Shown piece after piece: positions 9,863 to 33,769 of a stretch of DNA of 33,769 nt. The DNA is taken from the IMG/VR virus record IMGVR_UViG_3300017913_002605, positions 1-33,769 of that record; one strand, written 5' to 3'. The stretch comes from a virus (lineage: Duplodnaviria; Caudoviricetes). Each line of letters starts with the position of its first letter. Within the stretch, counting starts at the first letter, position 1. Under the pieces are notes generated by a model. That model was not told the origin of the DNA. It was given only the letters and a program-made list of their open reading frames with translations, and searched no databases. A program made the translations under genes and the position numbers.

Positions 9863-11911
9863 TTAAAAGAACACATCATCTGTTTCAGCTGCTTTAATAG
9901 CTTTTTGTTCATCGTTATAAAAACGTCTTGTTGATCCACCCTTTGGTCCTCTAAGGAACAGAACAACCCACTCGTTATAATTGAGAGTTGATTCAGTAAC
10001 TTTGTTTCCATTTGGAAATCTCATAGGATACTTAGATGGCTCTTCTGGTGGCGGTGGCGGTGATGCTGGCTTTGGCGCTGGTGCAACAGGTTCAGCTTCT
10101 TGTTCTGTGCTGAAGTTTTGAATCGTGCCATCTACATTTACCGCATACTGACGTTTATCTTTATCAAACGCAATTGTTGGATTCTCTGGTGTTGCATTTA
10201 CTTCTGCTTCTGCAGCTGGAGTATCAGATGTAGTAGATTTGTGTGAAGACTGTCTTCTGAATTTCTTTACATACTCACCAACATCAAACCCAGGACCATA
10301 TCTAGTATCACCACCAAGTTCTTCTAATCCTATAGCTTCTCTAGCTTTTGGTAATCTGAAGAATACCTTCAGAACCATATCAAGCGATCTCCATTGTTCT
10401 GCAGTTATTGAATCTGCAGATAAGAAAGCTGACTGGCCACCACCTTCTGTACGTGGTATAGTTAGTCCAGCATCTAATGTAAATATAAGTTTAGTTAAAA
10501 ACGTTTCACCACCAACAGTTCTACCATTATATGGTATCATATCTGCGGGAAGCATACGTTCTATTGTACCATCTTTACGAATGAAGTAATTGGCTTGCCA
10601 AGCCTTATCAAGTGTAACAATATTATACTTTAATCTGTCACCAGATATCAACCCGTGCTGCAATCTCTTTTTAACAAAAAAGTCGTTCCACTCTTTCCCG
10701 GTCCAGTTATCATCTGATCCAGATGCTCCGACCCAACTAATCACTAAAGTTTCTGGTGTTCTCAAATCAGTTAAACTTGCAAGCTCTAGCTCTAGTTCTT
10801 TTGCCCCATTAACTTTTTTGTATTCAAGGTCAGATACAAACACAGGTCTTCTTCCGGAAGAAGTAGACACATCTAATATGTCTGTAGTTGGTTCAGTCAC
10901 ATCAGTTAACTTATTCCCTTTATTAACAACTTTTGATAGATTTGTATTACCACTGAGATCAACTATTGGAGGAACAGGTAAACCATCAGCAGGATTAATT
11001 CCACCAGGTAATGTGTCGAGAGGATTCCCAATACCCTGAAATGATCCCACATTTGTAATTGAGCCAACTACAGATCCAAGTATATTACCAAACGGCAAAC
11101 CTTTTGGGCCAAATCCAGGAGTATTCACTTGTGGAACATCAAGCGATGGAACACTTACACCAGTAGGTGACTTTGGAGTAATCCCCTGTGCAATTGCACC
11201 TATATCAAACCCAAATGGATTACCAAGTGATTTCATTTGCAGCTGAGATGATTGTGATAATCCTTCAGCAACTTTCTCAGTCTCAATATTTTGCATCAAA
11301 GAGTTTACACCTTGACCTTTTAGCAAATTATTAAATTCGCCAAGATCGGTTTCAGTAAATCCAACTGACTTTAATTGTTCTTGGACTTGTGGATTGTTTA
11401 TTGCATCAGATGCTTCATTAGTAGCTTGTTTAATTGCTGGCTCAGCTGCCTTTAGTTCATCACGCAATACTTTATTAATTGCCTTTGGATTACCACCAGA
11501 TATAACTTTACGTAACTTCTTTTCAGTAGCGGTACTCTTACCAGCTAGTGCATCTACATTTGCTTTTGTTGCAGGCTTAGAGTTTACAGTGATACCAGGA
11601 ACATTAGATTGCATTTCTGATATAACTGGATCTACACGTTTACGAACATCTTCAGCAATTTCTTCTAACTGTGGCTTCACTTCTTCACTAAGCGACTTGA
11701 ATCCAGCAACAGTTTGGCCAAACGTAGCTCCACCTGACGCAAAGTTTTTAACTAAATTAATTGCTTGCTGTTGTTGCGCTTGTGTTAGTGCAGGACCTTT
11801 ACGTGCAGCAATTTGTGATTCATTTAATTTAGATTGCACCGACTCATTTGGAATCAGTGTTCCATCTGGGGCTTTTTTGAACCCACCTTTATCTGAACCT
11901 AAGTCTACCAT
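9863..11911 (-). CDS. Tail-associated protein with a degenerate N-acetylmuramoyl-L-alanine amidase (Amidase_2-like) domain
   Basis: 'LVISW', 'NYFIRKDGTIERMLP', 'ITAEQWRSL', 'IGLEEL', 'GPGFDV' match T7-lysozyme-like motifs in order; helical and Gly/Pro-rich N-terminal half. Confidence 0.65.
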   Translation of the reverse strand: MVDLGSDKGGFKKAPDGTLIPNESVQSKLNESQIAARKGPALTQAQQQQAINLVKNFASGGATFGQTVAGFKSLSEEVKPQLEEIAEDVRKRVDPVISEMQSNVPGITVNSKPATKANVDALAGKSTATEKKLRKVISGGNPKAINKVLRDELKAAEPAIKQATNEASDAINNPQVQEQLKSVGFTETDLGEFNNLLKGQGVNSLMQNIETEKVAEGLSQSSQLQMKSLGNPFGFDIGAIAQGITPKSPTGVSVPSLDVPQVNTPGFGPKGLPFGNILGSVVGSITNVGSFQGIGNPLDTLPGGINPADGLPVPPIVDLSGNTNLSKVVNKGNKLTDVTEPTTDILDVSTSSGRRPVFVSDLEYKKVNGAKELELELASLTDLRTPETLVISWVGASGSDDNWTGKEWNDFFVKKRLQHGLISGDRLKYNIVTLDKAWQANYFIRKDGTIERMLPADMIPYNGRTVGGETFLTKLIFTLDAGLTIPRTEGGGQSAFLSADSITAEQWRSLDMVLKVFFRLPKAREAIGLEELGGDTRYGPGFDVGEYVKKFRRQSSHKSTTSDTPAAEAEVNATPENPTIAFDKDKRQYAVNVDGTIQNFSTEQEAEPVAPAPKPASPPPPPEEPSKYPMRFPNGNKVTESTLNYNEWVVLFLRGPKGGSTRRFYNDEQKAIKAAETDDVFF

Positions 11912-14162: not shown

Positions 14163-14911
14163 TATTCTTTCAGAGCTTTCTTATATGCAGATGCAATTAC
14201 AGACATGTTTTCTGGTTTGATTACTTTAATTTGTTTCAGAGCGTCATTCTGTCTTCTATATCTATCGGCTATGGTTACCTCATTGTATATTGCTGGCGCT
14301 GGTCCTGTTGGACTGACGTCAACATATTCTTTAGCTGCATTCTCATAATGATGAGTTGCATTATACTCAAACCCAGACGACACAACATTGAATGTAGCTG
14401 TGTTTGGTGGTTGTGATGCAGCTGTGATAGCTTCACCAACTTGGAAAGGTCCAGTCGAATCTACAATTAATATACCGTGATCAAGATCTCTTTTAAGAAT
14501 CTTTCCACTCTTACCTGACTGCTGGCCATATACTATTTCATTTTGCAAATAGAAGTTTGATATATCAGCGTTCACTTTTATATAATAATGTGGATGATCT
14601 TTTTTCAATTGTTCATCCATCTGCTTGAGAGTCAATGGCCAACCCTGTTCACGAATATGATCATTCATCATCCAGAATGTCCAATGGAATACTGGTGTAC
14701 CATATAGATACTGAGATACCTGATCTGGTCTTTCATTTTCAATAATGTTGTAATAATTATAGAAGTGAGCAGCCTGTCTAACCTGATCAACAATATCAAC
14801 ATACTGTGACAGATCTTGAACATATTCAATCTGACGTCGGCCCGAGCCAGCCTTTTCAAACTCATCACCAAAAGTGTATGCTACCTTTTTAAAGTTTTGA
14901 AAGTATTTCAT
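14162..14911 (-). CDS. gp53: Baseplate wedge subunit gp53
   Basis: 'MKYFQNF', 'YNIIENERPDQVSQYLYG....HW...MMN......WP', 'N...KQIKVIKP'. Confidence 0.9.
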   Translation of the reverse strand: MKYFQNFKKVAYTFGDEFEKAGSGRRQIEYVQDLSQYVDIVDQVRQAAHFYNYYNIIENERPDQVSQYLYGTPVFHWTFWMMNDHIREQGWPLTLKQMDEQLKKDHPHYYIKVNADISNFYLQNEIVYGQQSGKSGKILKRDLDHGILIVDSTGPFQVGEAITAASQPPNTATFNVVSSGFEYNATHHYENAAKEYVDVSPTGPAPAIYNEVTIADRYRRQNDALKQIKVIKPENMSVIASAYKKALKE

Positions 14912-23014: not shown

Positions 23015-23325
23015 TTCAAAATCCCCATACTAAATATTGTCTGTAAGCCTTTAGACAATTCATCACCTTCAGGTTCCCAAGGATCACAATCAACACCAAA
23101 CAATACTTTCTTCATGCATGTTTGGACTTTGACTACCTCAGTTTTTGTGATAACCTCTCTAGGTGCAGTTTTACATTCATAACGCTGAGTGCTGTTAGTA
23201 CGTCCATGTTTGTCAGTCTCAACAATCCTAACATACTTACACTCTTGACCAAGCTCAGCCTTAGTTCCAGTCGTTATCATAATTAACGGTATCGCGGTAA
23301 GCATCACCATAATACTTTTCCGCAT
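23011..23325 (-). CDS. Secreted Cys-containing hypothetical protein
   Basis: Likely start MRKSIMVMLTAIPLIMITTGTKA (signal-peptide-like) inside the 130-aa track ORF; four Cys. Confidence 0.6.
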   Translation of the reverse strand: MRKSIMVMLTAIPLIMITTGTKAELGQECKYVRIVETDKHGRTNSTQRYECKTAPREVITKTEVVKVQTCMKKVLFGVDCDPWEPEGDELSKGLQTIFSMGILN

Positions 23326-23482
23326 ACTGAGATGCATCAGTCCAAGCATTGATATTTCCATTATCATATTTGTCAAAGGAACGCGTCTCGGTCTTACGGA
23401 CACGCTGGTTACGATTCAGCTTCTTAGAGAATTTCTTAGAGGCCTTACGAATAAGTGCTAATCTCTCTTCACGTGTTTGCAT
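23261..23482 (-). CDS. Early hypothetical protein
   Basis: 73 aa, GAGGAG RBS, directly behind a sigma70-type promoter. Confidence 0.75.
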   Translation of the reverse strand: MQTREERLALIRKASKKFSKKLNRNQRVRKTETRSFDKYDNGNINAWTDASQYAEKYYGDAYRDTVNYDNDWN

Positions 23483-23497
23483 ATTAACTCCTCATAA

Positions 23498-23531
23498 AAA
23501 AATAGCAGATGATCTATTATCCGCTATTTTT
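23498..23531 (-). terminator. 13-bp hairpin with A/T tracts (probable intrinsic terminator) overlapping an early promoter
   Basis: Minus strand AAAAATAGCGGAT-aatagatc-ATCTGCTATTTTT(TT), one G-U pair. Confidence 0.55.
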
Positions 23532-23544
23532 GAAATAAGGTCAA
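23516..23544 (-). promoter_or_regulatory. Early sigma70-type promoter TTGACC-17-GATAAT
   Basis: Same -35 and spacer start (TTGACCTTATTTCAAA) as the promoter at 25822-25850; A-tract upstream. Confidence 0.75.
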
Positions 23545-23554
23545 CAATTATTTT

Positions 23555-23812
23555 TTATGAATTGTAAATTTTTCTGAGCATATCTTCAAACTCATCTACC
23601 TTCTCTACACGATTAGGCCAGAGGATGTATTCTTTCTCAGGATTCTTTTTGAGATTATTCAGCAATGGTGTAATGGCATTATACAGTTTGTCAAGTTTAT
23701 CTTGAGTGACATTTTGTCCAACATCAAGCTGATCAATGACATCTTGCTTCTTCTTAACTACATCAAGTTCGTTTTCATCAACGGCCGTAAAGCCAAAGTC
23801 AAAGTCATCCAC
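23555..23812 (-). CDS. Hypothetical protein
   Basis: Probable GTG start at 23812 (MDDFDFGFTAVDENEL...LYNAITPLLNNLKKNPEKEYILWPNR) behind a purine-rich RBS. Confidence 0.75.
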   Translation of the reverse strand: MDDFDFGFTAVDENELDVVKKKQDVIDQLDVGQNVTQDKLDKLYNAITPLLNNLKKNPEKEYILWPNRVEKVDEFEDMLRKIYNS

Positions 23813-23972
23813 TCTCTCTTCTCCATACTGCATAATTGATAAAGAACATATAACCAACAACAAACCAAAAGACACTACCAGTCATTATGGCTTGAGTGAT
23901 CATCCAAGCACAGATTAATACTAGACCAATATCGCCTATGTTTATTCTGGGCGTTTCACTTGTTTGTAGCAT
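23805..23972 (-). CDS. Small two-helix membrane protein (55 aa, not in ORF track)
   Basis: Manual translation MLQTSETPRINIGDIGLVLICAWMITQAIMTGSVFWFVVGYMFFINYAVWRRESG*; fills the operon gap. Confidence 0.5.
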   Translation of the reverse strand: MLQTSETPRINIGDIGLVLICAWMITQAIMTGSVFWFVVGYMFFINYAVWRRESG

Positions 23973-24157
23973 ACGTATTTGTTTCCAATTGGTGTTTCAA
24001 TTGGCATTGAGTATACACCTGGTTCAGTACTTGGAGCCCTACATGGCTCTAGCTTTTCCCAATATGTGTACCCGTTTGCCTCGTGTTCAACTTTTGCGTT
24101 GAAAAAGTCTGCGTTAGTCCATGCAACCAGACCTAAAAATAAAATGCCTTCAATCAT
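23942..24157 (-). CDS. Small exported hypothetical protein
   Basis: GGAGA RBS before MIEGILFLGLVAW; two Cys. Confidence 0.65.
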   Translation of the reverse strand: MIEGILFLGLVAWTNADFFNAKVEHEANGYTYWEKLEPCRAPSTEPGVYSMPIETPIGNKYVCYKQVKRPE

Positions 24158-24176
24158 CTGTTTCTCCAAAGTGTGA

Positions 24177-24330
24177 TGGTGGCTAACCATTGGCCACCGC
24201 GGATGTATTTAGGCATCACCCTTAATAAAGCAGAGCCAGCGTATACTTAATGGTACTGGGTGCGTTCTCCTTTGTTATTTAGGGCTTCCACCTAATCCCA
24301 CCTCACTTTAAAGTCTGCGTGTCCAAGACT
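24177..24330 (-). ncRNA. Putative structured RNA (~155 nt) transcribed from a late promoter
   Basis: Locally GC-richer intergenic segment with 5-6 stems found by eye and complementary loops ACCATT/AATGGT; starts a few nt after TATAAATA. Confidence 0.65.
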
Positions 24331-24334
24331 ATCT

Positions 24335-24342
24335 TATTTATA
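24335..24342 (-). promoter_or_regulatory. Late promoter TATAAATA ahead of the putative RNA
   Basis: Exact consensus inside an otherwise early region. Confidence 0.7.
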
Positions 24343-24345
24343 GGT

Positions 24346-24395
24346 TTCCAGCGAGGGAGCTGAGAGAGGAGCTAAATGGCTCAACCTCGCTGGAA
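24346..24395 (-). ncRNA. Hairpin with a perfect 11-bp stem carrying an anti-Shine-Dalgarno sequence
   Basis: TTCCAGCGAGG-TTGAGCCATTTAGCTCCTCTCTCAGCTC-CCTCGCTGGAA. Confidence 0.55.
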
Positions 24396-24401
24396 TCTCT
24401 A

Positions 24402-24448
24402 TCAGTTATAGACTTCTATCGTCTAGCCGTCTGTAAGCCTATAACTGA
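24402..24448 (-). other. 14-bp hairpin overlapping the stop codon of the upstream ORF
   Basis: TCAGTTATAGGCTT-19 nt-AAGTCTATAACTGA; a G-U pair forms only on the minus strand. Confidence 0.6.
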
Positions 24449-24660
24449 AACTTTATATACGATATAATATCACGAATTGTTTCTCTCGTTGCTGTCTCAT
24501 AAGGACCCATAACATTATCTATCTCATCATAATGATGTACACCATTTGGATCTACAAGGCAATGCCATAACTTACGAGTACGATCATCCGGATCTTCATC
24601 AACCTCTGTACGATATTGCCAACCGTCAACAGTAAACTGTAAAAAACCGAATGGTAACAT
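24439..24660 (-). CDS. Hypothetical protein
   Basis: Likely start MLPFGF at 24660 (TAATG overlap with upstream ORF). Confidence 0.65.
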   Translation of the reverse strand: MLPFGFLQFTVDGWQYRTEVDEDPDDRTRKLWHCLVDPNGVHHYDEIDNVMGPYETATRETIRDIISYIKFQL

Positions 24661-24971
24661 TATGCAGCATCCGCTCTCATTAAGATTGTCATCTGAGCAC
24701 AAAAGTCAATCAACTGATCGTTAGTTAAAGTAGAAAAGTCTAACGAACGAGCATAAGACTTGCTCATGGCATCAGCAGCCAGATAGTATGCTGACTCCTC
24801 AAGATCAATACGCTGATACTCAGCCAGCGTACCAGATGGTACACGCTGTGACCAATACTCAGTATCAGTGTGACATGGAAGTTTACCCATGAAGTTACCA
24901 GGTGCAGCTGCTGTGAATGCTTCTGCTTCAGCGCGCTGTGCTACGATATAATCTACAAGTGCCTTTTCCAT
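24660..24971 (-). CDS. Hypothetical protein
   Basis: 103 aa, GGAGAG RBS, in early operon. Confidence 0.75.
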   Translation of the reverse strand: MEKALVDYIVAQRAEAEAFTAAAPGNFMGKLPCHTDTEYWSQRVPSGTLAEYQRIDLEESAYYLAADAMSKSYARSLDFSTLTNDQLIDFCAQMTILMRADAA

Positions 24972-24973
24972 AA

Positions 24974-25123
24974 TTACTCTCCCAAAGCATATTCAATTGC
25001 GGCATCAAGAAGCTCTTCAGCTTTCTTCTTATCAACATCAAATGCCTTCATGATGGCTTCAACACCTTCTACAGCATTCTTTGTAGGACCCATAACTTCT
25101 AAAACAGAATCTAGCTTTTTCAT
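24974..25123 (-). CDS. Small early protein (49 aa, not in ORF track)
   Basis: GAGGAG RBS; MKKLDSVLEVMGPTKNAVEGVEAIMKAFDVDKKKAEELLDAAIEYALGE*. Confidence 0.75.
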   Translation of the reverse strand: MKKLDSVLEVMGPTKNAVEGVEAIMKAFDVDKKKAEELLDAAIEYALGE

Positions 25124-25154
25124 TTTTAACTCCTCAGTAACTCTCTACCCTTTT

Positions 25155-25215
25155 ATTATACATCATTTTTAAAATAGGGTCAAGCTTTTTTTTCAACTTT
25201 TTTTAATTTTTTTTT
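25155..25215 (-). promoter_or_regulatory. Early sigma70-type promoter TTGACC-17-TATAAT with A-tract UP element
   Basis: -35 at 25178-25183, -10 at 25155-25160, several A-tracts upstream. Confidence 0.85.
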
Positions 25216-25227
25216 CTATTGTTACTT

Positions 25228-25398
25228 TTACCAGGTTCTTTCATCACCACTAAGTGTTGGTGGATCTTCCAACATCTGCAGACGATATTTTAGTTTATCA
25301 ATTTCTTCGTTCAGTTCTTTGATACGAGCATACAACTGATACTTTTCTTCAGTTTCCATTTGCATTTGTCTTTTATAAATGTCTATATCTGGATCCAT
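25228..25398 (-). CDS. Small coiled-coil protein (56 aa, not in ORF track)
   Basis: MDPDIDIYKRQMQMETEEKYQLYARIKELNEEIDKLKYRLQMLEDPPTLSGDERTW*; GGAGG upstream. Confidence 0.65.
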   Translation of the reverse strand: MDPDIDIYKRQMQMETEEKYQLYARIKELNEEIDKLKYRLQMLEDPPTLSGDERTW

Positions 25399-25802
25399 TT
25401 GTTATATATTTCCTCCTGGAGTCTATATGCTTCTTCTTCCCAAGGTAAAGCCATATACTCATCAGTAGTACTGAATGCAGTAATATGTTCTTCACCCTTC
25501 CAAGATTTCACAATACCTCTATCTTTTAACTCACCGCGTTCATGCTGCTTGACATGAACCATCTCATGAAAGATAGCTGTTACAAAATCTTCCTCAATCA
25601 GACCTTGTTGGATCTCAATCTCATGTTCACCTTTATCAAGAAACATATGAAACCCATCAACATCACCTTCAAGGTCGGTAATGCTAAGATCAATAGATAA
25701 AAATTTCTTCTTAGGCATAAGTTCTTTTACAGCAAACTCTACAGCTTTGCGAGCTAATAGACGCTCTGTACCTGAACCACCTTCTAAAGATATATGTAAC
25801 AT
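25383..25802 (-). CDS. Zincin-type HExxH metallopeptidase-like protein
   Basis: 'IFHEMVHVKQ' and 'Y..LPWEEEAY'. Confidence 0.8.
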   Translation of the reverse strand: MLHISLEGGSGTERLLARKAVEFAVKELMPKKKFLSIDLSITDLEGDVDGFHMFLDKGEHEIEIQQGLIEEDFVTAIFHEMVHVKQHERGELKDRGIVKSWKGEEHITAFSTTDEYMALPWEEEAYRLQEEIYNKWIQI

Positions 25803-25821
25803 ATTAAGCTCCTCTGCTAAT

Positions 25822-25850
25822 AGTATACATCAGATTTGAAATAAGGTCAA
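25822..25850 (-). promoter_or_regulatory. Early sigma70-type promoter TTGACC-17-TATACT
   Basis: Consensus spacing; GAGGAG RBS follows. Confidence 0.8.
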
Positions 25851-25851
25851 C

Positions 25852-26460
25852 TTATTTTTTCTTATGTACTTCTATTCTTGCATTCTCAGGAATGTCAATC
25901 TTGATAGCATCGTGCTTATGATGTAACACCCATTCAATATCTTTAAACTCTTTGAACATATGAGTCCAGATTGGTCTCCAGTTATTAGACAATCTGTTAT
26001 TGTTCATGTTCCCTCTATCTGATTTAAGAACCAGATCAGTATAAGAACGAAGATTAAAATCAAAGATGGAATCAAAGCCCCAAAGGTGAATCCTGTCTGG
26101 CTTAAGACGCCTAGCTGCGTAATAACTAGCCATGTGGCCACAATTAAAGTCTGTATAGTTAGCTGCATATTTTGGTTTCTCTGTAAAGAATTCTTTGATA
26201 CGTGGAGCAATCTTCATATGAAACTGAGGATTCTTATCACAATACATCTTAGGACGAATACCACAGATCCATTCACCAGGAGGATTAATCTCTCCTTTAT
26301 GAATCGTAGCAAACATCTTAAAGTCTACAATTGCTGTTGCATACATGTCATATATTTCAAAAGGTGGTACGTTACAAGTAATCTTCAAACCTTTGCGAGG
26401 TTCTTGTTGATACCAAGCAGCATTATCACCATTGCCTATAATATGTACAGCTTTTGCCAT
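25852..26460 (-). CDS. Putative Maf/CstII-like (DUF115-type) sugar transferase-fold protein
   Basis: 'VHIIGNG', 'ITCN', 'NCGHMA', 'IHLWGFD' pattern; last gene of the sugar cluster. Confidence 0.5.
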   Translation of the reverse strand: MAKAVHIIGNGDNAAWYQQEPRKGLKITCNVPPFEIYDMYATAIVDFKMFATIHKGEINPPGEWICGIRPKMYCDKNPQFHMKIAPRIKEFFTEKPKYAANYTDFNCGHMASYYAARRLKPDRIHLWGFDSIFDFNLRSYTDLVLKSDRGNMNNNRLSNNWRPIWTHMFKEFKDIEWVLHHKHDAIKIDIPENARIEVHKKK

Positions 26461-27122
26461 TACAACATACTCCTAATCTTATCTTTACCTTTCTTACCAG
26501 TCCAATGCATTAGCTTAACCTTACCATCATAGTTATCTACTTCAACATCCAGCCTTAACACATTATATGGTTTTGGTAAAGTATGTATAGATCCAATACG
26601 AGTGATGGGATTCAACATAGCGTGAAGTGTTTCTTGATCTCCACCTTTGTTACCTCTACCACATTCTTGAGCCCATTTCTTTAGTATCAGTGGTTTATGT
26701 ATAACTCCTACTACTCCAGAGTTATGCCAAGTCTCTCCACTTCTCTTTGTCCACGGAGTATCCTCAACCATGTTTAATCTATTTGGTTCAAGGTGATCAA
26801 ATATATCATCTACATTTGCTTTTACTTCAATATCAAGATCAAGCCATACCATTTTTTCTGCAGGAGCAAACCACATAGCTTCTGGTTTCATGAACCAAGT
26901 CTTGTGGGCAGGGTTCTTTGGAATCATCTCCATACGACCACAGAATATATCACTAGCATCCACTACTCGTTTCATAGAGTCTGATATACCAAAGTCAGCA
27001 AATATAATTTTAGTCTCATGGCTATGATAACGGAAGTTCTTCATAAACCATTTCAGTAACCATTCTTGACCTTCATCACATCCAGTAACAAAAGCCTTTG
27101 GAAATACTTTTCTCTTAGACAT
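26460..27122 (-). CDS. GT-A glycosyltransferase, GT8-like
   Basis: 'WLDLD' DxD, 'HNSGV', 'GDQETL', 'HWTGKKGK'. Confidence 0.8.
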   Translation of the reverse strand: MSKRKVFPKAFVTGCDEGQEWLLKWFMKNFRYHSHETKIIFADFGISDSMKRVVDASDIFCGRMEMIPKNPAHKTWFMKPEAMWFAPAEKMVWLDLDIEVKANVDDIFDHLEPNRLNMVEDTPWTKRSGETWHNSGVVGVIHKPLILKKWAQECGRGNKGGDQETLHAMLNPITRIGSIHTLPKPYNVLRLDVEVDNYDGKVKLMHWTGKKGKDKIRSML

Positions 27123-27765
27123 GCTCTAACCTATATGTTTCATTATATGAGTGCTTAGCTAAACAACCTCGATCGTTTTGAATCGTACTAAAATTATCTC
27201 TAGCTTCTACTGGCCATGGATAATATTCTTGTAACCAAGGGAAAGTATCTGTATTCAAAAATACGTCGGTTGGCTTAGCATATCCTCTTTGTGCACTCTC
27301 AATTAGTAACCAAGCTCCAGATGGCTTAACCATATATGCATGTGCACCACCAAAGTATCTTTTATGAGTGAGAGGATTAACACCAATTGATTCTGGAGTA
27401 TTAAACTTACCATATGATGGTTTACCCACAGTCATTACATGCATGAAGTCTACAGGAGGGACTTCACCAACAAAGTATGCATCATGTTCTAAGATTAGAA
27501 ATGGCTCATTACTAACAGCACATTTTTCCCACAAACTAAAATGTGAGCTGAATGCTGCCATACAATTTTCATGACGGGAATAAACCTCTTCAAAGTGACT
27601 ACTGTCAATTCCTCTGCTTGCCAAGAACTCAGCTGGTTTATCACTAGGAGTCATCGCTTGATGTTTCTCAACTTCAATGTCATACATCTTTGCAGACTTG
27701 ATACAACGATTAGCTGCTTGAACAGACTTCTCGTTATTCATAATTGTAATCACATAGGCTTGCAT
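27115..27765 (-). CDS. Glycosyltransferase, GT25-like
   Basis: 'AYVITI', 'SSHFSLWEKC', 'LILEHDA', 'GAHAYMVKPSGA'. Confidence 0.8.
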   Translation of the reverse strand: MQAYVITIMNNEKSVQAANRCIKSAKMYDIEVEKHQAMTPSDKPAEFLASRGIDSSHFEEVYSRHENCMAAFSSHFSLWEKCAVSNEPFLILEHDAYFVGEVPPVDFMHVMTVGKPSYGKFNTPESIGVNPLTHKRYFGGAHAYMVKPSGAWLLIESAQRGYAKPTDVFLNTDTFPWLQEYYPWPVEARDNFSTIQNDRGCLAKHSYNETYRLEHV

Positions 27766-27768
27766 AAT

Positions 27769-28464
27769 TTAATCCGTAGTTGTTGATGGCAGTCCTTGAA
27801 CTTTAGTATAGAACTCTCTTGTTACACCCATTCTTGGTACCAGCTGTTTACACATCAGGGCATCGTTAGGCCATGCACCATATTGTTCAGCAGCATCCAA
27901 TACATTCTTAGCTCCAGCTGGTTTAATTATATATGCACTATTTCCAGCAAGGCCTTGAGGCACATTAAACTCATCAATATCAGGTATTGGTTGTATCTCT
28001 TGTGGATGTTCTTTAATCAGATCATGAAACACTCTAGCTTTACGTGTAGCCATCAATGGGTTGTTGATACCTATTATATCATATTTTGAATCTAAAATAT
28101 ACTGGTAATCTAACTTTTGTACAAATTGTGCATCATGTTCTAATACCAATATTGGCTCATTAGTGCTTACTGCTTTATGCCATAATCGATAATGACTCAT
28201 GAAACACGCAATACGTCTCTCTTTGTAACGAGTGGGATAAGCCTTGAGAGTCAGGCCAGATGCAAAGTCAATTGATTGACCTTCCCAAGGATAACTCCAC
28301 TTGAGACCAGCACCATGCAAAGTTATATTTGCAAACTCCTGAGTAGTTGCATCAAGTCTCTCTATATTGAAACTATTTTTAACTTTAGTTGAAGATTCTC
28401 TCAAGGTCTTGTAAGCATTTTCCGATACCTCATTATCCTTGATTACAATTGCATATGCTTTCAT
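27769..28464 (-). CDS. Glycosyltransferase, GT25-like
   Basis: 'ACFMSHYRLW', 'LVLEHDA', 'GNSAYIIKPAGA', 'PND'. Confidence 0.8.
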   Translation of the reverse strand: MKAYAIVIKDNEVSENAYKTLRESSTKVKNSFNIERLDATTQEFANITLHGAGLKWSYPWEGQSIDFASGLTLKAYPTRYKERRIACFMSHYRLWHKAVSTNEPILVLEHDAQFVQKLDYQYILDSKYDIIGINNPLMATRKARVFHDLIKEHPQEIQPIPDIDEFNVPQGLAGNSAYIIKPAGAKNVLDAAEQYGAWPNDALMCKQLVPRMGVTREFYTKVQGLPSTTTD

Positions 28465-29051
28465 GACTTCTTCAGTACAGTATATCCTACATTTGTTTTA
28501 CCACGTTCAATAATACTCCACCCTTTATTATTCTCACAGAAATCAGATAGACAACGATACAGAGCATCTTTAGGATTATCTTGGCAGATTGTAGTATCAT
28601 GAGCAATGATATACTTTTTGACAGAGCTTGCGTGTAAGGCAAGTTCTTGTTCCATATGCGAGCGTTTATGTAATGAATCAATCATAAGCATATCAACATC
28701 TCTACCACTCATAGAATTGAACGAGGTTGAATCAGCCTCTTTCACTACAAGTTCGATACCATGCTCTTTACAATATGGTTCAGCAAGAGACTTTAGTTTC
28801 CATCTGTATTTGTAGTGATCAATATCAATCAGTTCCATATATTCAGGCTTATGTTCACCTGACATTACAGCTGCAGCAGATGCTCCTTGATGTGTACCAA
28901 GCTCTTTATATGACTTACAGTCTTTCATATACTTACGGATTGCATCATGCATAGCACAATAGTCTTCGCCATGATATTCTTCTTGTTGTGAACGAATGTC
29001 TGTATAAAACTCCTCAACACTCTTCACATGCTTCATATCAGCCGTCAGCAT
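28461..29051 (-). CDS. Class I SAM-dependent methyltransferase (Methyltransf_24-like)
   Basis: 'ELGTHQGAS', 'DMLMIDSLH', 'YIIAHDT'. Confidence 0.75.
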   Translation of the reverse strand: MLTADMKHVKSVEEFYTDIRSQQEEYHGEDYCAMHDAIRKYMKDCKSYKELGTHQGASAAAVMSGEHKPEYMELIDIDHYKYRWKLKSLAEPYCKEHGIELVVKEADSTSFNSMSGRDVDMLMIDSLHKRSHMEQELALHASSVKKYIIAHDTTICQDNPKDALYRCLSDFCENNKGWSIIERGKTNVGYTVLKKS

Positions 29052-29874
29052 TTAACCTCCATTCACTTACAGGTAAGTTTGTTATTCTATGTAGTTTATC
29101 ATAATCCCAATCATCAGCACCACGTAACTGAATATGAACAAACTTAGTATCTTCATTACGATAATCTGTCACAGGTCTATTATCACCAGACGTACCAGGT
29201 TTATAATGTACATAGTGATTCCATCCTGGATGCATTTCTGTCCAATCAAAACCAGCTACTTCTAACATAGCATGTAGATAAGGTTGATCACACATATAGA
29301 ACCAAGGGAGTGGAGGATTAATTGATCTTGTTAGTGCAACATATTCTTCAAACTTCACAAAGTTTTCACGGGCATGAGCTCTACCTTCTTTTGTCCAAAG
29401 TACCACACCAGAGTTGTATACTTTTGGTAGACCTGACTCTGTACGAGGCATATCAACTTTATACACTTGTTTGAGAAGTGCGCACCATCTTTCATCATTA
29501 GCATTATTAATAATACCAGATATTGCTTGATTCTTTCTGAGCTCGGGCTGAAGACCTTCTGTACAGATACCTACATGGCCAACATCTAAATCAAAGATAT
29601 TCTCTTGTAAGTTGTCGACGACCATTATATCTTGATCAACAAAGAGAATCTTATCATACTGCTCAAAGTACTCATCATAGATAATCTTGAAACATCCATA
29701 GTGTGGAGAATACTTTCCAAAGTCTTGACCATATGTTCCTCTAAGCCAATTAGGATCTTGTTCAAATAAATGCTCAGCGCCCATACGCTCAGCATATTCT
29801 TTCATAGATCTAACTGACGCTCGTGTGCCTGGAAGGTCTGGTCCATCAAAGTATTGATAGATTAAGTTTTTCAT
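29038..29874 (-). CDS. GT-A glycosyltransferase, GT8-like
   Basis: 'ILFVDQD', 'YNSGVVL', 'DQPYL', 'WN', 'FVH'. Confidence 0.8.
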   Translation of the reverse strand: MKNLIYQYFDGPDLPGTRASVRSMKEYAERMGAEHLFEQDPNWLRGTYGQDFGKYSPHYGCFKIIYDEYFEQYDKILFVDQDIMVVDNLQENIFDLDVGHVGICTEGLQPELRKNQAISGIINNANDERWCALLKQVYKVDMPRTESGLPKVYNSGVVLWTKEGRAHARENFVKFEEYVALTRSINPPLPWFYMCDQPYLHAMLEVAGFDWTEMHPGWNHYVHYKPGTSGDNRPVTDYRNEDTKFVHIQLRGADDWDYDKLHRITNLPVSEWRLNADG

Positions 29875-30812
29875 TTATAATAATCCTTATACCATTCTAC
29901 AAAGTTCTTCACGCCAACGTCAATAGGAGTTGATGGCTTGTATCCAACCATCTGCTCTAACTTAGTTACGTCAGACCATGTCTCAAGAGCATCTGCTGGA
30001 TGTCTTGGTTTGAATTCCATTTCTGCTTCTTTACCAAGATTCTTCTTGATAAGATATATGAAGTCCATAAGATCAACTTGTTTGCCATAACCAATACAGA
30101 AAGTTTCTCTTTCAAACTCATGCTGCGACACAAGTTCAATACCTTGAACAATATCATCAACGTAAGTAAAGTCACGTTTCATTTGTCCATTATTATACAC
30201 AGTTATTGGCTTATCGGCAAGGATATTTTTTGTAAAAGTAAACAGAGCCATGTCTGGTCTGCCCCATGGTCCATATACTGTAAAGAACCTTAAGCAAACA
30301 GCTGACTTAATATTTGAGATATGAAACTGATCTTCGTTTGTAGCTTTTGTTAATCCATATGGATTGAGCTGTTTACCCAACTTCTCATCAGGTCCCCATG
30401 GCAAAGGATTACCTTCCATAGCACATGATGTAGATGCATAGATTACTTTATTGACCCCAAACCGTTCCATGGTATCAATTAAGATCTGTGTACCTGCAAT
30501 GTTGTTCTGAATATATTCATACTGCCTATTCATTGACGTACGAACACCAGCATGTGCTGCTAGGTGAATTACAAGATCTGGAATGTCATATCCAATTGTC
30601 TGTCCCATACTAAAACTATCGCATAAGTCAATATCATGTATCTTGATACCACACATATCCTCTAGTTCTTTTGCTCGAGCATGTTTCAATTCTGCATCAT
30701 AGATGATACTATTGAAGTCATCTATGCCATATACTTCATGTCCAAGTGAGTGAAACTTTAGAGCTGTGTGAAAGCCAATAAATCCTGCACAGCCCGTAAT
30801 AAGAACTTTCAT
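29871..30812 (-). CDS. NAD-dependent nucleotide-sugar epimerase (UDP-glucuronate 4-epimerase-like)
   Basis: 'TGCAGFIG', 'HLAAHAGVR', YxxxK 'YGLTK', 'RFFTVYGPWGRPDMA', 'RDFTYVDDI'. Confidence 0.92.
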   Translation of the reverse strand: MKVLITGCAGFIGFHTALKFHSLGHEVYGIDDFNSIIYDAELKHARAKELEDMCGIKIHDIDLCDSFSMGQTIGYDIPDLVIHLAAHAGVRTSMNRQYEYIQNNIAGTQILIDTMERFGVNKVIYASTSCAMEGNPLPWGPDEKLGKQLNPYGLTKATNEDQFHISNIKSAVCLRFFTVYGPWGRPDMALFTFTKNILADKPITVYNNGQMKRDFTYVDDIVQGIELVSQHEFERETFCIGYGKQVDLMDFIYLIKKNLGKEAEMEFKPRHPADALETWSDVTKLEQMVGYKPSTPIDVGVKNFVEWYKDYYK

Positions 30813-31477
30813 TATAAGATTCCTTGATCTACAAGAGCCTGATAGTTTTCTATCTTTTCACGTTTAGGACCTTGCGGTGTTACTTTTGTTCTAATATGTA
30901 TAAAGCCTGCTTCAGATGGGTTTGGTAGAAAAGAACACTGACACCATTTACGGTTCATATATGGTGTGTCATATTGGAACTTTGTCTTAACTGCAAGCAC
31001 ATGCATGATGCCTTCATCTTCAAAAGTATATGGAGCATTGAATGGATCCATCCAAGACTCATCACCACCTAAACCTTTACGGAGATGTTGACGAGTATCC
31101 CTATCCATAAGATAGATTGCACCACCCCAATATGGAACGGTAATACTTGCATCAGGACTTACTTTTGCAATCTTTCTATGTAACATCTTCTGTACATCAG
31201 CATACAATCCAATACCTCTACGATCAAAGATATTGTCTTTGTTCTGCTTTGGAGAGAACATATCAATGTCAAGCATGAGCACTTTGTCATACTCATCAAA
31301 CTCTTCATCAATCATATGTACTTTCTGACAAGGTGATGTTAAATGTTCACGAAAAGGCTTTCCAGTAATCAAACGATACTCAGCACCATGCTGCTTTGCA
31401 TACTGTTGTATGTTTGCCATGGAAAGTTTATCTAACTCTCTCAGCTCACCATCAAAGTGCTGAAGTATTATATTCAT
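30812..31477 (-). CDS. GT-A glycosyltransferase
   Basis: 'YDKVLMLDID', 'WGG', 'EDEG', 'FIH'; layout parallels the other GT8-like ORFs. Confidence 0.7.
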   Translation of the reverse strand: MNIILQHFDGELRELDKLSMANIQQYAKQHGAEYRLITGKPFREHLTSPCQKVHMIDEEFDEYDKVLMLDIDMFSPKQNKDNIFDRRGIGLYADVQKMLHRKIAKVSPDASITVPYWGGAIYLMDRDTRQHLRKGLGGDESWMDPFNAPYTFEDEGIMHVLAVKTKFQYDTPYMNRKWCQCSFLPNPSEAGFIHIRTKVTPQGPKREKIENYQALVDQGIL

Positions 31478-32160
31478 TTAGTTCCCCAGAAATGCCAATG
31501 AGACATTTGCATAGGACTTTTAGATGTTGTCCAATTGAATTCATCGTGCTTTTTACGTATCTTCATAAAATACTTTACATTATCTATACCATCAATAATA
31601 TGGTTATGAGCAACAAACACTTTACCAAAGTAATTCCATGGAATCTTTTCTCTATCTGATAGAGGCATTTCGTTGATGCTATGAGTTGCAATCATAAGAC
31701 TACTAGCCCTTGGTATAATGTCATCAAGACCACCAAAGTCTACGTCTGTAACACCAGCTTCTTTTAACCACGTTCGTTGAATCTCATGCATGATAGGAAA
31801 ATCAATACATGTATACTTACCTGTGTATCCATTCTGCCTCAACAACCAAGCTAGGTTTCCATACCCAGATCCAACATCCCAGATTTCATCAATGCCGTCC
31901 AAAAGATTATTATCTTTTAATATACGGATATACATTGTAGACTGCAATGTAATTAAACTATAATCACCTGTTAAGTATGGATTACCAAACTTTGGATCTG
32001 GTCTAATGATATCATCACTAGCATATTTGAATGCATACCTTTGAGCAGTACTTAGTAGATTTGGATGTACTGTTTCCGATATATGCTTTTGTCTTAGAAA
32101 ATTATCTCGGTGTGTCCATTCACCTTGTATGCTCGCAAGCATATCATCCCATAAACTCAT
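31474..32160 (-). CDS. Putative sugar O-methyltransferase
   Basis: SAM motif 'DVGSGYGNL', 'IDFP....IQ', 'IATHSINEMP..DR'. Confidence 0.7.
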   Translation of the reverse strand: MSLWDDMLASIQGEWTHRDNFLRQKHISETVHPNLLSTAQRYAFKYASDDIIRPDPKFGNPYLTGDYSLITLQSTMYIRILKDNNLLDGIDEIWDVGSGYGNLAWLLRQNGYTGKYTCIDFPIMHEIQRTWLKEAGVTDVDFGGLDDIIPRASSLMIATHSINEMPLSDREKIPWNYFGKVFVAHNHIIDGIDNVKYFMKIRKKHDEFNWTTSKSPMQMSHWHFWGTK

Positions 32161-32936
32161 GTAACCTTACTCATCAAATTTTGTACATCTTCACCTCTAT
32201 TTGGAAGTTTATCTTTCAAAAAGAAGTGTACGAAGTATGCATGTTTAATATCTTCAACAGCAGTATACAAAGCATTCCACTTATAATCAAGATGCTGTAG
32301 TTTCATCTTTTCATTACGAACCCAATAGTTCAATAAAGTTTGATCTGTTGACCACTTCCATGGTCCCATGCCATCTACAAAGTCTTTGAACTCTGGTCTT
32401 TGAATAAACTCCTTACCACTATCACCACGAAGATATTTAGTAATGCTTTTATTCATCAGCATTAGACCCATATTGAAGAACTGACCGCCTTTTGAATTGA
32501 AGTCCCAATCAATATTCTTCAACTGGCCATATTGCATTTGTGTATAGTTTCTGAGCTTGCCTGCATACCAAGGTAAGATAGGACCTTCACGTTCTACCAT
32601 ACCAGCAAAGTCAGTATCTTCATTCAACTCATCAAATATATTTGGTGATCCAGGACGGATCCAGATATCAGCATCAACAATACAGATCTGATCATACTTG
32701 TCCCAATAATCAAACGCATTCTCTTTTTCATAGATAGGCAAGAAGCCCCCATACTTCTCATAGGACTCCTTGCTTCTATTTGTTCTGAATACATCTGGTT
32801 TGATACGCATCTTAGGCGTACGTTGTACTATATGATCAATATTATACTGTGCACAATATTCTTTTACTGATTCTATACAATGGTCATATAATTTAGAAGG
32901 CTTACCTGTGTAAACCTGATATATCATTCGATTCAT
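32157..32936 (-). CDS. GT-A glycosyltransferase, GT8-like
   Basis: 'IVDADI', 'FNMGLM', 'TDQTLLN', 'KWNAL', 'FVHFF'. Confidence 0.8.
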   Translation of the reverse strand: MNRMIYQVYTGKPSKLYDHCIESVKEYCAQYNIDHIVQRTPKMRIKPDVFRTNRSKESYEKYGGFLPIYEKENAFDYWDKYDQICIVDADIWIRPGSPNIFDELNEDTDFAGMVEREGPILPWYAGKLRNYTQMQYGQLKNIDWDFNSKGGQFFNMGLMLMNKSITKYLRGDSGKEFIQRPEFKDFVDGMGPWKWSTDQTLLNYWVRNEKMKLQHLDYKWNALYTAVEDIKHAYFVHFFLKDKLPNRGEDVQNLMSKVT

Positions 32937-33289
32937 TATTTGTCTTTCGCGTTTGTCCTAGCTTTCTGATAGGCTTGTGCACCAAAGAATGCACCGACTA
33001 GTGCTGATACTGATACAAAATAAGTTGGTGCAATATCAGCTAAGAGCTGACCGGTTGACTCAAAGCTGAACGGAAGAATGTCTGTAACTACAATTCCAAT
33101 TGGATATAATAACATTCCCCAAAGAGCAAACCATGCCATGCGGCGGATTTGATCTTCTTTTTTATCTTCGTTCTCTGCTCTCATCATTTCTTTTTCAAGT
33201 TCAAACTCTTCGTCAGTTACAATTCCATCACCATCAAGATCGTAGTGCTCATACTTCGATCCCGATTCTAGTTTCTTTTGCGCATTCAT
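32936..33289 (-). CDS. Small membrane protein with an EF-hand-like loop
   Basis: 'DLDGDGIVTDEE' followed by two hydrophobic helices and a basic tail. Confidence 0.7.
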   Translation of the reverse strand: MNAQKKLESGSKYEHYDLDGDGIVTDEEFELEKEMMRAENEDKKEDQIRRMAWFALWGMLLYPIGIVVTDILPFSFESTGQLLADIAPTYFVSVSALVGAFFGAQAYQKARTNAKDK

Positions 33290-33500
33290 CTGAATACTCC
33301 TTAATAGTCTGAGCTATTTCAGTTGCCATAGCAAAACCATTACGAAGTGAGTTCGATCTATGACCGTTCTCCACAAACCACTCAATAGTATCTATACAAG
33401 AACCATCTGGCATATTATACTCTTTAGTAACCTCTTCAAACTCAGTCCGAAGATTCATAATTTGCATAAACGTCATCCATCCATCCTCACAGTTAGACAA
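33249..33500 (-). CDS. Hypothetical protein (start uncertain)
   Basis: 83-aa ORF in operon orientation; may start at an internal Met. Confidence 0.55.
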   Translation of the reverse strand: MSNCEDGWMTFMQIMNLRTEFEEVTKEYNMPDGSCIDTIEWFVENGHRSNSLRNGFAMATEIAQTIKEYSDECAKETRIGIEV

Positions 33501-33769
33501 TCTTGAAGTTGTTCAAAAAGATACTCTTCAATATCATCCTCGTTACATTGAAAGCGAATACCAAGCCCACCAGCTTGTTCCCAGCGGTAGATATTCTCAG
33601 GCTTATCATCAATCAAAATGTTAGGTCTGCCATCAATAGGACTCATGGCGTACTTGTGTTTGTTTGATGTAAAGATACAGTTACAAACTTCTGGCATGAA
33701 GTTCATACGCTCTAACCATACACGTTTGTGGTATATAGAGTTTGTCTCATCACCACGCATAGGAGATGA
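33473..33769 (-). CDS. 5'(3')-deoxyribonucleotidase-like HAD protein (partial, begins beyond the window)
   Basis: 'SSPMRGD...K..WL' and 'NILIDDKPENI..W..AGG.GI'; frame stays open to the window edge. Confidence 0.75.
   Translation of the reverse strand, partial: SSPMRGDETNSIYHKRVWLERMNFMPEVCNCIFTSNKHKYAMSPIDGRPNILIDDKPENIYRWEQAGGLGIRFQCNEDDIEEYLFEQLQDCLTVRMDG

Follow-up and report, generated by a model that had tools for sequence, protein, structure and literature searches.

A conserved RNA hairpin in T4-like phages with a loop complementary to early-gene ribosome-binding sites

An RNA hairpin located in a non-coding gap of a T4-like phage genome is a real, conserved and uncatalogued phage RNA structure. 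The explanation judged best, with a slightly better than even chance on the sequence comparisons described here, is that the minus-strand hairpin RNA would pair with the GAGGAG(C/U)U leaders in front of early genes of the same phage, block ribosome loading and brake early translation while sparing late genes. The stretch of DNA analysed, called the window, comprises 33,769 nucleotides of IMG/VR record IMGVR_UViG_3300017913_002605, a viral record that is 16% complete. The window carries baseplate, tail, gp32 and gp33 genes, and its gp32 is closest to those of phage C48C1 (64%) and Methylophilales phage Melnitz (56%), both placed under Kyanoviridae. The hairpin gap lies between a 73-aa ORF at 24439-24660 and a 71-aa ORF at 23942-24157, inside a minus-strand block with three sigma-70-type early promoters at 25822-25850, 25155-25183 and 23516-23544, all of them consensus matches only. 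The promoter at 25155-25183, an 11/12 match, is the nearest one upstream that would transcribe the hairpin. The three promoters and the three ribosome sites quoted with them in the preliminary description of this DNA are all there. A motif match to TATAAATA at 24335-24342 (minus strand), which we take to be a T4-type late promoter, lies just downstream. Because it is directly 3' of the hairpin, the hairpin belongs to upstream transcripts. Similar wording for a late promoter appears in the available part of the Melnitz paper (PMC9004378). A minus-strand block at 25852-33760 features epimerase, glycosyltransferase-like and 2OG-Fe(II) oxygenase genes with a plausible role in sugar modification.

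The hairpin spans 24346-24395 on the minus strand, as determined by folding, alignment and a covariance model. The perfect 11-bp basal stem that was first noticed is formed by 24346-24356 and 24385-24395. The feature had been drawn out to 24411; the remainder beyond 24395 is merely an 11-codon ORF and is not part of the hairpin. Past a 2-nt bulge, an upper stem of four pairs (24357-24360 with 24379-24382) closes an open 18-nt loop at 24361-24378, and the loop core GCUCCUCUCUC at 24362-24372 is antisense to GAGAGAGGAGC. Folding of the minus-strand segment 24340-24395 yields -23.7 kcal/mol (z -4.8), a stability that 0 of 200 shuffles reach, and the loop is predicted to be accessible, since unpairing its 15-nt core costs 0.4 kcal/mol. 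Features of an intrinsic terminator were absent: the loop is 18 nt, there is no U tail on either strand, and the hairpin was not called as a terminator. Rfam 15 gave 0 matches in the window at the gathering threshold, merely three chance lncRNA matches in the region 23900-24800 at E values up to 10, and tRNAs only at ten related loci, and a tRNA search did not match the hairpin. No published description of the hairpin was found in the open literature as judged from listings, nothing relevant came up for phage C48C1, and the word "hairpin" is absent from the main text of the Melnitz paper (PMC9004378) in its available part.

Pattern scans recovered 18 distinct copies of the hairpin in related T4-like phage contigs. 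The loop core is invariant in 18/18 aligned copies (alignment A1), and one further copy has A in place of a loop G. The loop had been described as antisense to an SD (Shine-Dalgarno) sequence plus ATG; the SD part stands as the invariant core, and the start-codon part falls away, because the CAT opposite the start codon is not conserved in alignment A1 and is peculiar to the window genome. Two loop-blind anchors were used so that copies were not selected on the loop, namely a stem-only pattern built from six known copies and a downstream module, module D. The stem-only search gave 16 matches, 14 with the loop and two unrelated. With module D as the anchor, the hairpin is upstream with its loop kept in 12/12 viral contigs, and 14 metagenome matches comprise nine true loci, all of which keep the loop, and five chance matches in bacterial genes; the stem-only, viral and metagenome sets overlap through shared contigs. 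The stem varies beneath a loop whose conservation the preliminary description had proposed to check: 7 of 15 pairs change on both sides (2/500 shuffles as high) and 25 stem cells are double-changed (0/500 shuffles as high), shuffle results that kinship of the copies can inflate. Paired cells make up 96% of the stem, against 35-51% in slid controls. The covariance model, R1, recovers the hairpin in 29 of 48 sources, and the other 19 are controls, one of which has a weak 17-bit match.

The strand of the RNA was assigned from G-U wobbles. Read on the minus strand, the basal stem contains ten G-U pairs and no unpaired cell among 198, and on the plus strand these ten pairs turn into A-C mismatches. 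Model R1 scores the window at 82.7 bits on the minus strand and 28.5 bits on the plus strand. The preliminary description had offered, as an alternative, a plus-strand SD sequestered in front of a small peptide, and the ORF at 24376-24411 (plus strand) does translate as stated there. The plus strand of the window also folds (-25.7 kcal/mol, z -3.6) and an ATG, GTG or TTG start is found in 12/22 copies; however, ATG is present in only 2/22 copies, no start in 10/22, neither the spacing (3-5 nt) nor the ORF length (6-131 aa) is constant, and the plus strand from 23300 to 26500 has no sigma-70 and no late promoter match. With the wobble pairs and the start codons against it, the plus-strand alternative, including a type I toxin-antitoxin version, is largely refuted and hardly credible, and the 11-codon ORF is judged incidental.

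The hairpin is found once per contig, and the three additional 9-nt matches in 20 records do not represent second copies. The neighbours of the hairpin vary among contigs and may be hairpin A, motif C, another module, tRNA-Arg or, on the upstream side, gp32, and the hairpin therefore behaves as a movable module. An exact-stem scan of viral contigs gave 50 matches with just one true relative (L003). All 15 matches in GTDB fail to form the hairpin, so a chromosomal copy was rejected, leaving no host homolog and no clue to the host; tmRNA, considered as a host hint, was absent from the 40 loci scanned.

The gap that contains the hairpin holds an array of uncatalogued RNAs. Hairpin A (24400-24448, minus strand) is a conserved module in its own right, carried by some relatives only (L326, L345, L346), and features a long stem-loop with a conserved loop and a co-varying stem. 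Motif C (24280-24330, minus strand) is a structured module of about 50 nt with two stems, the second arm T-loop-like, and has no Rfam match. It was found in 29 of 30 pattern matches in viral contigs (including L052, Pseudomonas phage D3, and L053-L082), where it often sits within a cluster of tRNAs, and 48 Pseudomonas phage records carry it as well. Across 14 copies, both sides change in 6 of its 13 predicted pairs. Motif C, widespread in phage tRNA clusters, looks like a separate phage RNA family. Module D (24178-24270, minus strand) is a conserved multi-stem element present in all 12 viral matches (L339-L350). It served as an independent anchor for finding the hairpin, and parts of it recur downstream of the Melnitz tmRNA (L083). 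A glnA-like riboswitch was predicted downstream of that tmRNA, according to the available part of PMC9004378. Within 350 nt on the downstream side of the hairpin (0-350 nt), no fewer than four other small conserved modules are present in some contigs and replaced in others (L341, L342, L345, L330, L332).

The relation between the loop and early genes was examined in 21 clade records, which are the window and 20 related records taken whole (4-47% complete). Early leaders were defined by a sigma-70-type promoter within 60 nt and late leaders by TATAAATA; non-matching gp32 and nrdA-like genes were kept in the early counts. The loop pairs through at least nine contiguous bases with 23/68 early leaders and 0/34 late leaders, counts that are not independent since the genomes are related. 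The median loop-leader duplex energy is -13.2 kcal/mol for early and -6.5 kcal/mol for late leaders, and it ranges from -5.8 to -9.6 kcal/mol with the early leaders of nine other phage sets. Counted by protein family, GGAG(C/T) leaders precede 11/18 early and 1/13 late families (p 0.003). Late leaders of the clade contigs (L352-L371, L401-L417 and the window) are mostly without GGAG (29/34), and G021, a complete uncultured genome, has GGAG in 10/14. Early promoter-SD cassettes recombine in T4-type phages, as described in the part of PMC2839356 that was available.

Three further comparisons were set aside. A shuffled-loop control (0/500) was discarded as too weak, because any anti-SD sequence beats shuffles. 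A possible co-change of loop and leader in G005 and G010 was not counted, as it concerns one gene family in near-identical contigs. Full-length complements of the loop in viral contigs were not used as support: among 167 distinct sites, 21 are followed by an ATG that opens an ORF, two have a promoter-like site, and most are in unrelated viruses.

Within the window, 39 leaders were ranked with accessibility included, and the leaders behind the three early promoters match the loop as first proposed, at ranks 1, 3 and 4, in keeping with the strong excess of early over late leaders across relatives. The top-ranked predicted target is the GAGGAG-type leader and start of a 49-aa gene (25121-25135, minus strand; ten contiguous pairs), which is the first gene in the hairpin's own early operon and lies 750 nt upstream of the hairpin. 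The leader and start of a 139-aa gene behind the upstream early promoter (25800-25815, minus strand; nine contiguous pairs) rank third, and those of a 73-aa gene behind the downstream early promoter (23480-23493, minus strand; ten contiguous pairs) rank fourth; the transcript of this 73-aa gene would not include the hairpin. Ranks 2 and 5 belong to internal genes.

The base that follows GGAG distinguishes these early leaders. Among the clade early leaders with GGAG, it is C in 25/48 and T in 17/48 (C or T in 42/48). C follows GGAG in 4/114 other leaders of the same contigs, and C or T does so in 8/41 early leaders of nine other phage sets. The anti-SD sequence of the host 16S tail would favour G at this position of the leader. 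The loop base facing it is G, which pairs with C or U. In the 5.4-kb contig with the A-variant loop, all three GGAG early leaders have T next, a single case.

The CU-rich loop could instead serve a protein. The hairpin might be a decoy for ribosomal S1, Rho, Hfq or a defence nuclease, or an element for the processing or stability of an RNA end, with the leader match being a by-product of strong extended SD sites. Its place in an array where small RNA modules and tRNAs are shuffled would suit such a function, and an invariant loop on a variable stem also suits a protein site. A protein target leaves unexplained, however, why C follows GGAG in early leaders only and why the G-to-A loop variant occurs with T-only leaders, and the missing U tail and terminator call also speak against it; this possibility is regarded as improbable.

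The 3' end of the loop raises a different alternative. Loop positions 12-15 are nearly invariant, yet no more than 1-2 of the 68 early leaders of the clade use them; 6/14 early leaders of G021 and the contig G022 do. The partners of these positions may be early genes missing from the incomplete records, host mRNAs, other phages or a protein. A fixed but little used 3' end is consistent with a hairpin whose main targets are foreign, either host mRNAs whose ribosome sites are strong or early leaders belonging to T4-like phages that superinfect the cell, and the clade loop does pair through at least nine bases with 6/14 G021/G022 and 2/18 Melnitz early leaders. However, the 5' half of the loop is tuned to GGAG(C/U)U, the mark of the clade's own early leaders, and it would mismatch the canonical GGAGG. 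Foreign mRNAs as the main targets are thus considered quite unlikely.

Pairing of the loop with the phage's own early leaders could take place in cis or in trans. The data allow a cis action on the gene that opens the hairpin's own transcript, a possibility absent from the preliminary description. At a distance of 410-770 nt, the closest early leader upstream pairs through at least eight bases in 17 of the 21 contigs with an upstream early promoter, and is often the best match in the contig. In the other four contigs, two near-identical pairs, the hairpin follows gp32, whose leader is unmatched, and the matched leaders are about 5 kb away. Additionally, of the 45 early leaders that match, 14 are located downstream and have promoters of their own. 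Because the nearest leader matches in 17 contigs but not in four, and because of the 14 downstream leaders, the action was read as both: the hairpin probably acts both in cis, on the gene that its own transcript begins with, and in trans, on early mRNAs other than its own. A purely cis control like that of icaR mRNA, with the loop folding back only on the first-gene leader of its own transcript, is a narrower form of the same explanation. The 17 contigs agree with it; the four gp32 contigs and the downstream leaders do not, and the loop stays open in the predicted fold of the 819-nt early transcript, a fold that cannot reveal kissing between loop and leader. Control confined to cis is accordingly viewed as unlikely.

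In the mechanism proposed for the early-leader reading, the hairpin would be transcribed from the upstream early promoter and its RNA would accumulate as a stable RNA end or a processed piece, which would introduce a delay. The loop would then pair with early leaders in the cell and block ribosome loading, so that early protein synthesis would be repressed and late genes would be left untouched. Metatranscriptome contigs of close relatives span the hairpin in 4/4 seawater runs of one study; these contigs are unstranded, have no readable ends and may include DNA carry-over, and they indicate presence in RNA libraries only. A gap in RNA cover at 24408-24491 was discounted, as it is due to divergence of hairpin A.

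G021 (and G022) and Melnitz each feature a single long hairpin whose stem is unrelated and whose loop is CU-rich, located at L425:8000-8057 in G021 and at L442:18747-18795 in Melnitz (about 38,550-38,600 of that genome). The Melnitz hairpin and the beginning of an annotated hypothetical ORF of 59 aa overlap. Model R1 gave no match in C48C1, Melnitz, G021 or D3, and the Melnitz and G021 hairpins are likely analogs, or else too remote for the model. The leader motif GAGAGAGG or GAGAAAG occurs in 6/14 early leaders of G021/G022, 4/18 of Melnitz and 1/68 of the window clade, and the G021 loop has perfect 11-12 nt complements in two nearby leaders. At the median, G021 early leaders pair at -10.1 with their own loop versus -10.6 with the Melnitz loop, and Melnitz early leaders at -9.1 with their own loop versus -10.3 with the A-variant loop. 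These hairpins, the GAGAGAGG-type early leaders and the absence of RegB hits in both genomes count in favour of the best explanation; that the own loop is not the best partner at the median in G021 and Melnitz counts against it. Scans of Mosig, HTVC008M, T4, P-RSM6, Cr30 and C48C1 found no clear analog of the hairpin. Sinorhizobium phage phiM12 has two candidate hairpins with pyrimidine-rich loops (L623, minus, near 11470; L624, plus, near 14255) and no matching leader class by the early-promoter rule. Large-loop hairpins with CU-rich loops also lie upstream of TATAAATA in the short contigs L428 (4587-4628) and L429 (near 2749).

No middle promoters are reported for such phages in the available part of PMC9004378, and RegB was not found in four complete genomes of the group. 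RegB was found in T4, the positive control, and not in G021, Melnitz, Mosig or HTVC008M; a search of four clade fragments and C48C1 gave no match, which is uninformative for incomplete fragments. Since Mosig, HTVC008M and C48C1 showed neither RegB nor such a hairpin, the hairpin is no obligatory replacement for RegB. No ribosomal S21 was found in four clade fragments and G021, and hence no tie to a phage S21. One RNA that recognises many mRNAs by a code common to their leaders would be an economical way to stop early protein synthesis, and Melnitz is a cultured phage with an analogous hairpin. A wider reading is that the T4-like phages of this group run early shut-off by RNA and not by RegB, with one movable hairpin per genome, unrelated stems across lineages, a shared code of all early leaders read in trans, and a fixed 3' end that would silence the early leaders of competing T4-like phages (superinfection exclusion). 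This wider reading is doubtful and is put forward tentatively.

The hairpin has features in common with several known systems, which are compared here as they are given in the available parts of the cited papers. T4 RegB is an endoribonuclease that cuts the GGAG of early ribosome sites (PMC3014915), and the role proposed for the hairpin would parallel it, in that early mRNAs would be silenced through the GGAG of their ribosome sites while late mRNAs escape. RegB, however, is a protein nuclease that needs S1 and GGAGRAYARAA (PMC3014915), whereas the hairpin is an RNA matched to GGAG(C/U)U; A follows GGAG in 14 of 17 T4 early leaders. According to the same part of that review, no trans-acting small RNA has been functionally characterised from T4, so an RNA of this type has no characterised counterpart there. 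Other cyanophage RNAs are catalogued in PMC9964418.

The PeSL cassettes of T4-type phages account for alike early promoters and SD sites within a genome (PMC2839356, PMC4122927). These cassettes are multi-copy and located at promoters, whereas the hairpin occurs as a single copy away from early promoters, at least 400 nt from the nearest early gene start. The icaR mRNA of Staphylococcus aureus carries in its 3'-UTR an anti-SD motif downstream of the matching SD on the same transcript (PMC3868564). It involves one gene and a 7-nt motif; the hairpin is movable and matches leaders on other transcripts too. The c4 antisense RNA of phages P1 and P7 is a structured phage RNA with loops that pair around the ribosome site of a phage mRNA (PMC12197685). 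The hairpin loop is likewise complementary to phage ribosome-binding sites, on complementarity only, and the hairpin has no Rfam match to the c4 family model. The c4 RNA acts on a single antirepressor mRNA in temperate phages (PMC12197685), whereas the hairpin loop matches early leaders of T4-like phages as a class. The Cuckoo/RSs0680 sRNAs of Alphaproteobacteria combine variable, co-varying stems with a fixed anti-SD-like loop (PMC4615179), and the hairpin has both features. However, these sRNAs are bacterial and consist of 2-4 adjacent hairpins with CCUCCUCCC (PMC4615179), whereas the phage copies comprise one long hairpin per contig, in which the CCUCCUCCC motif is absent and the core GCUCCUCUCUC is present in 18/18 copies. 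The hairpin most likely works like the anti-SD sRNAs and fills a RegB-like role, as a member of none of the families listed.
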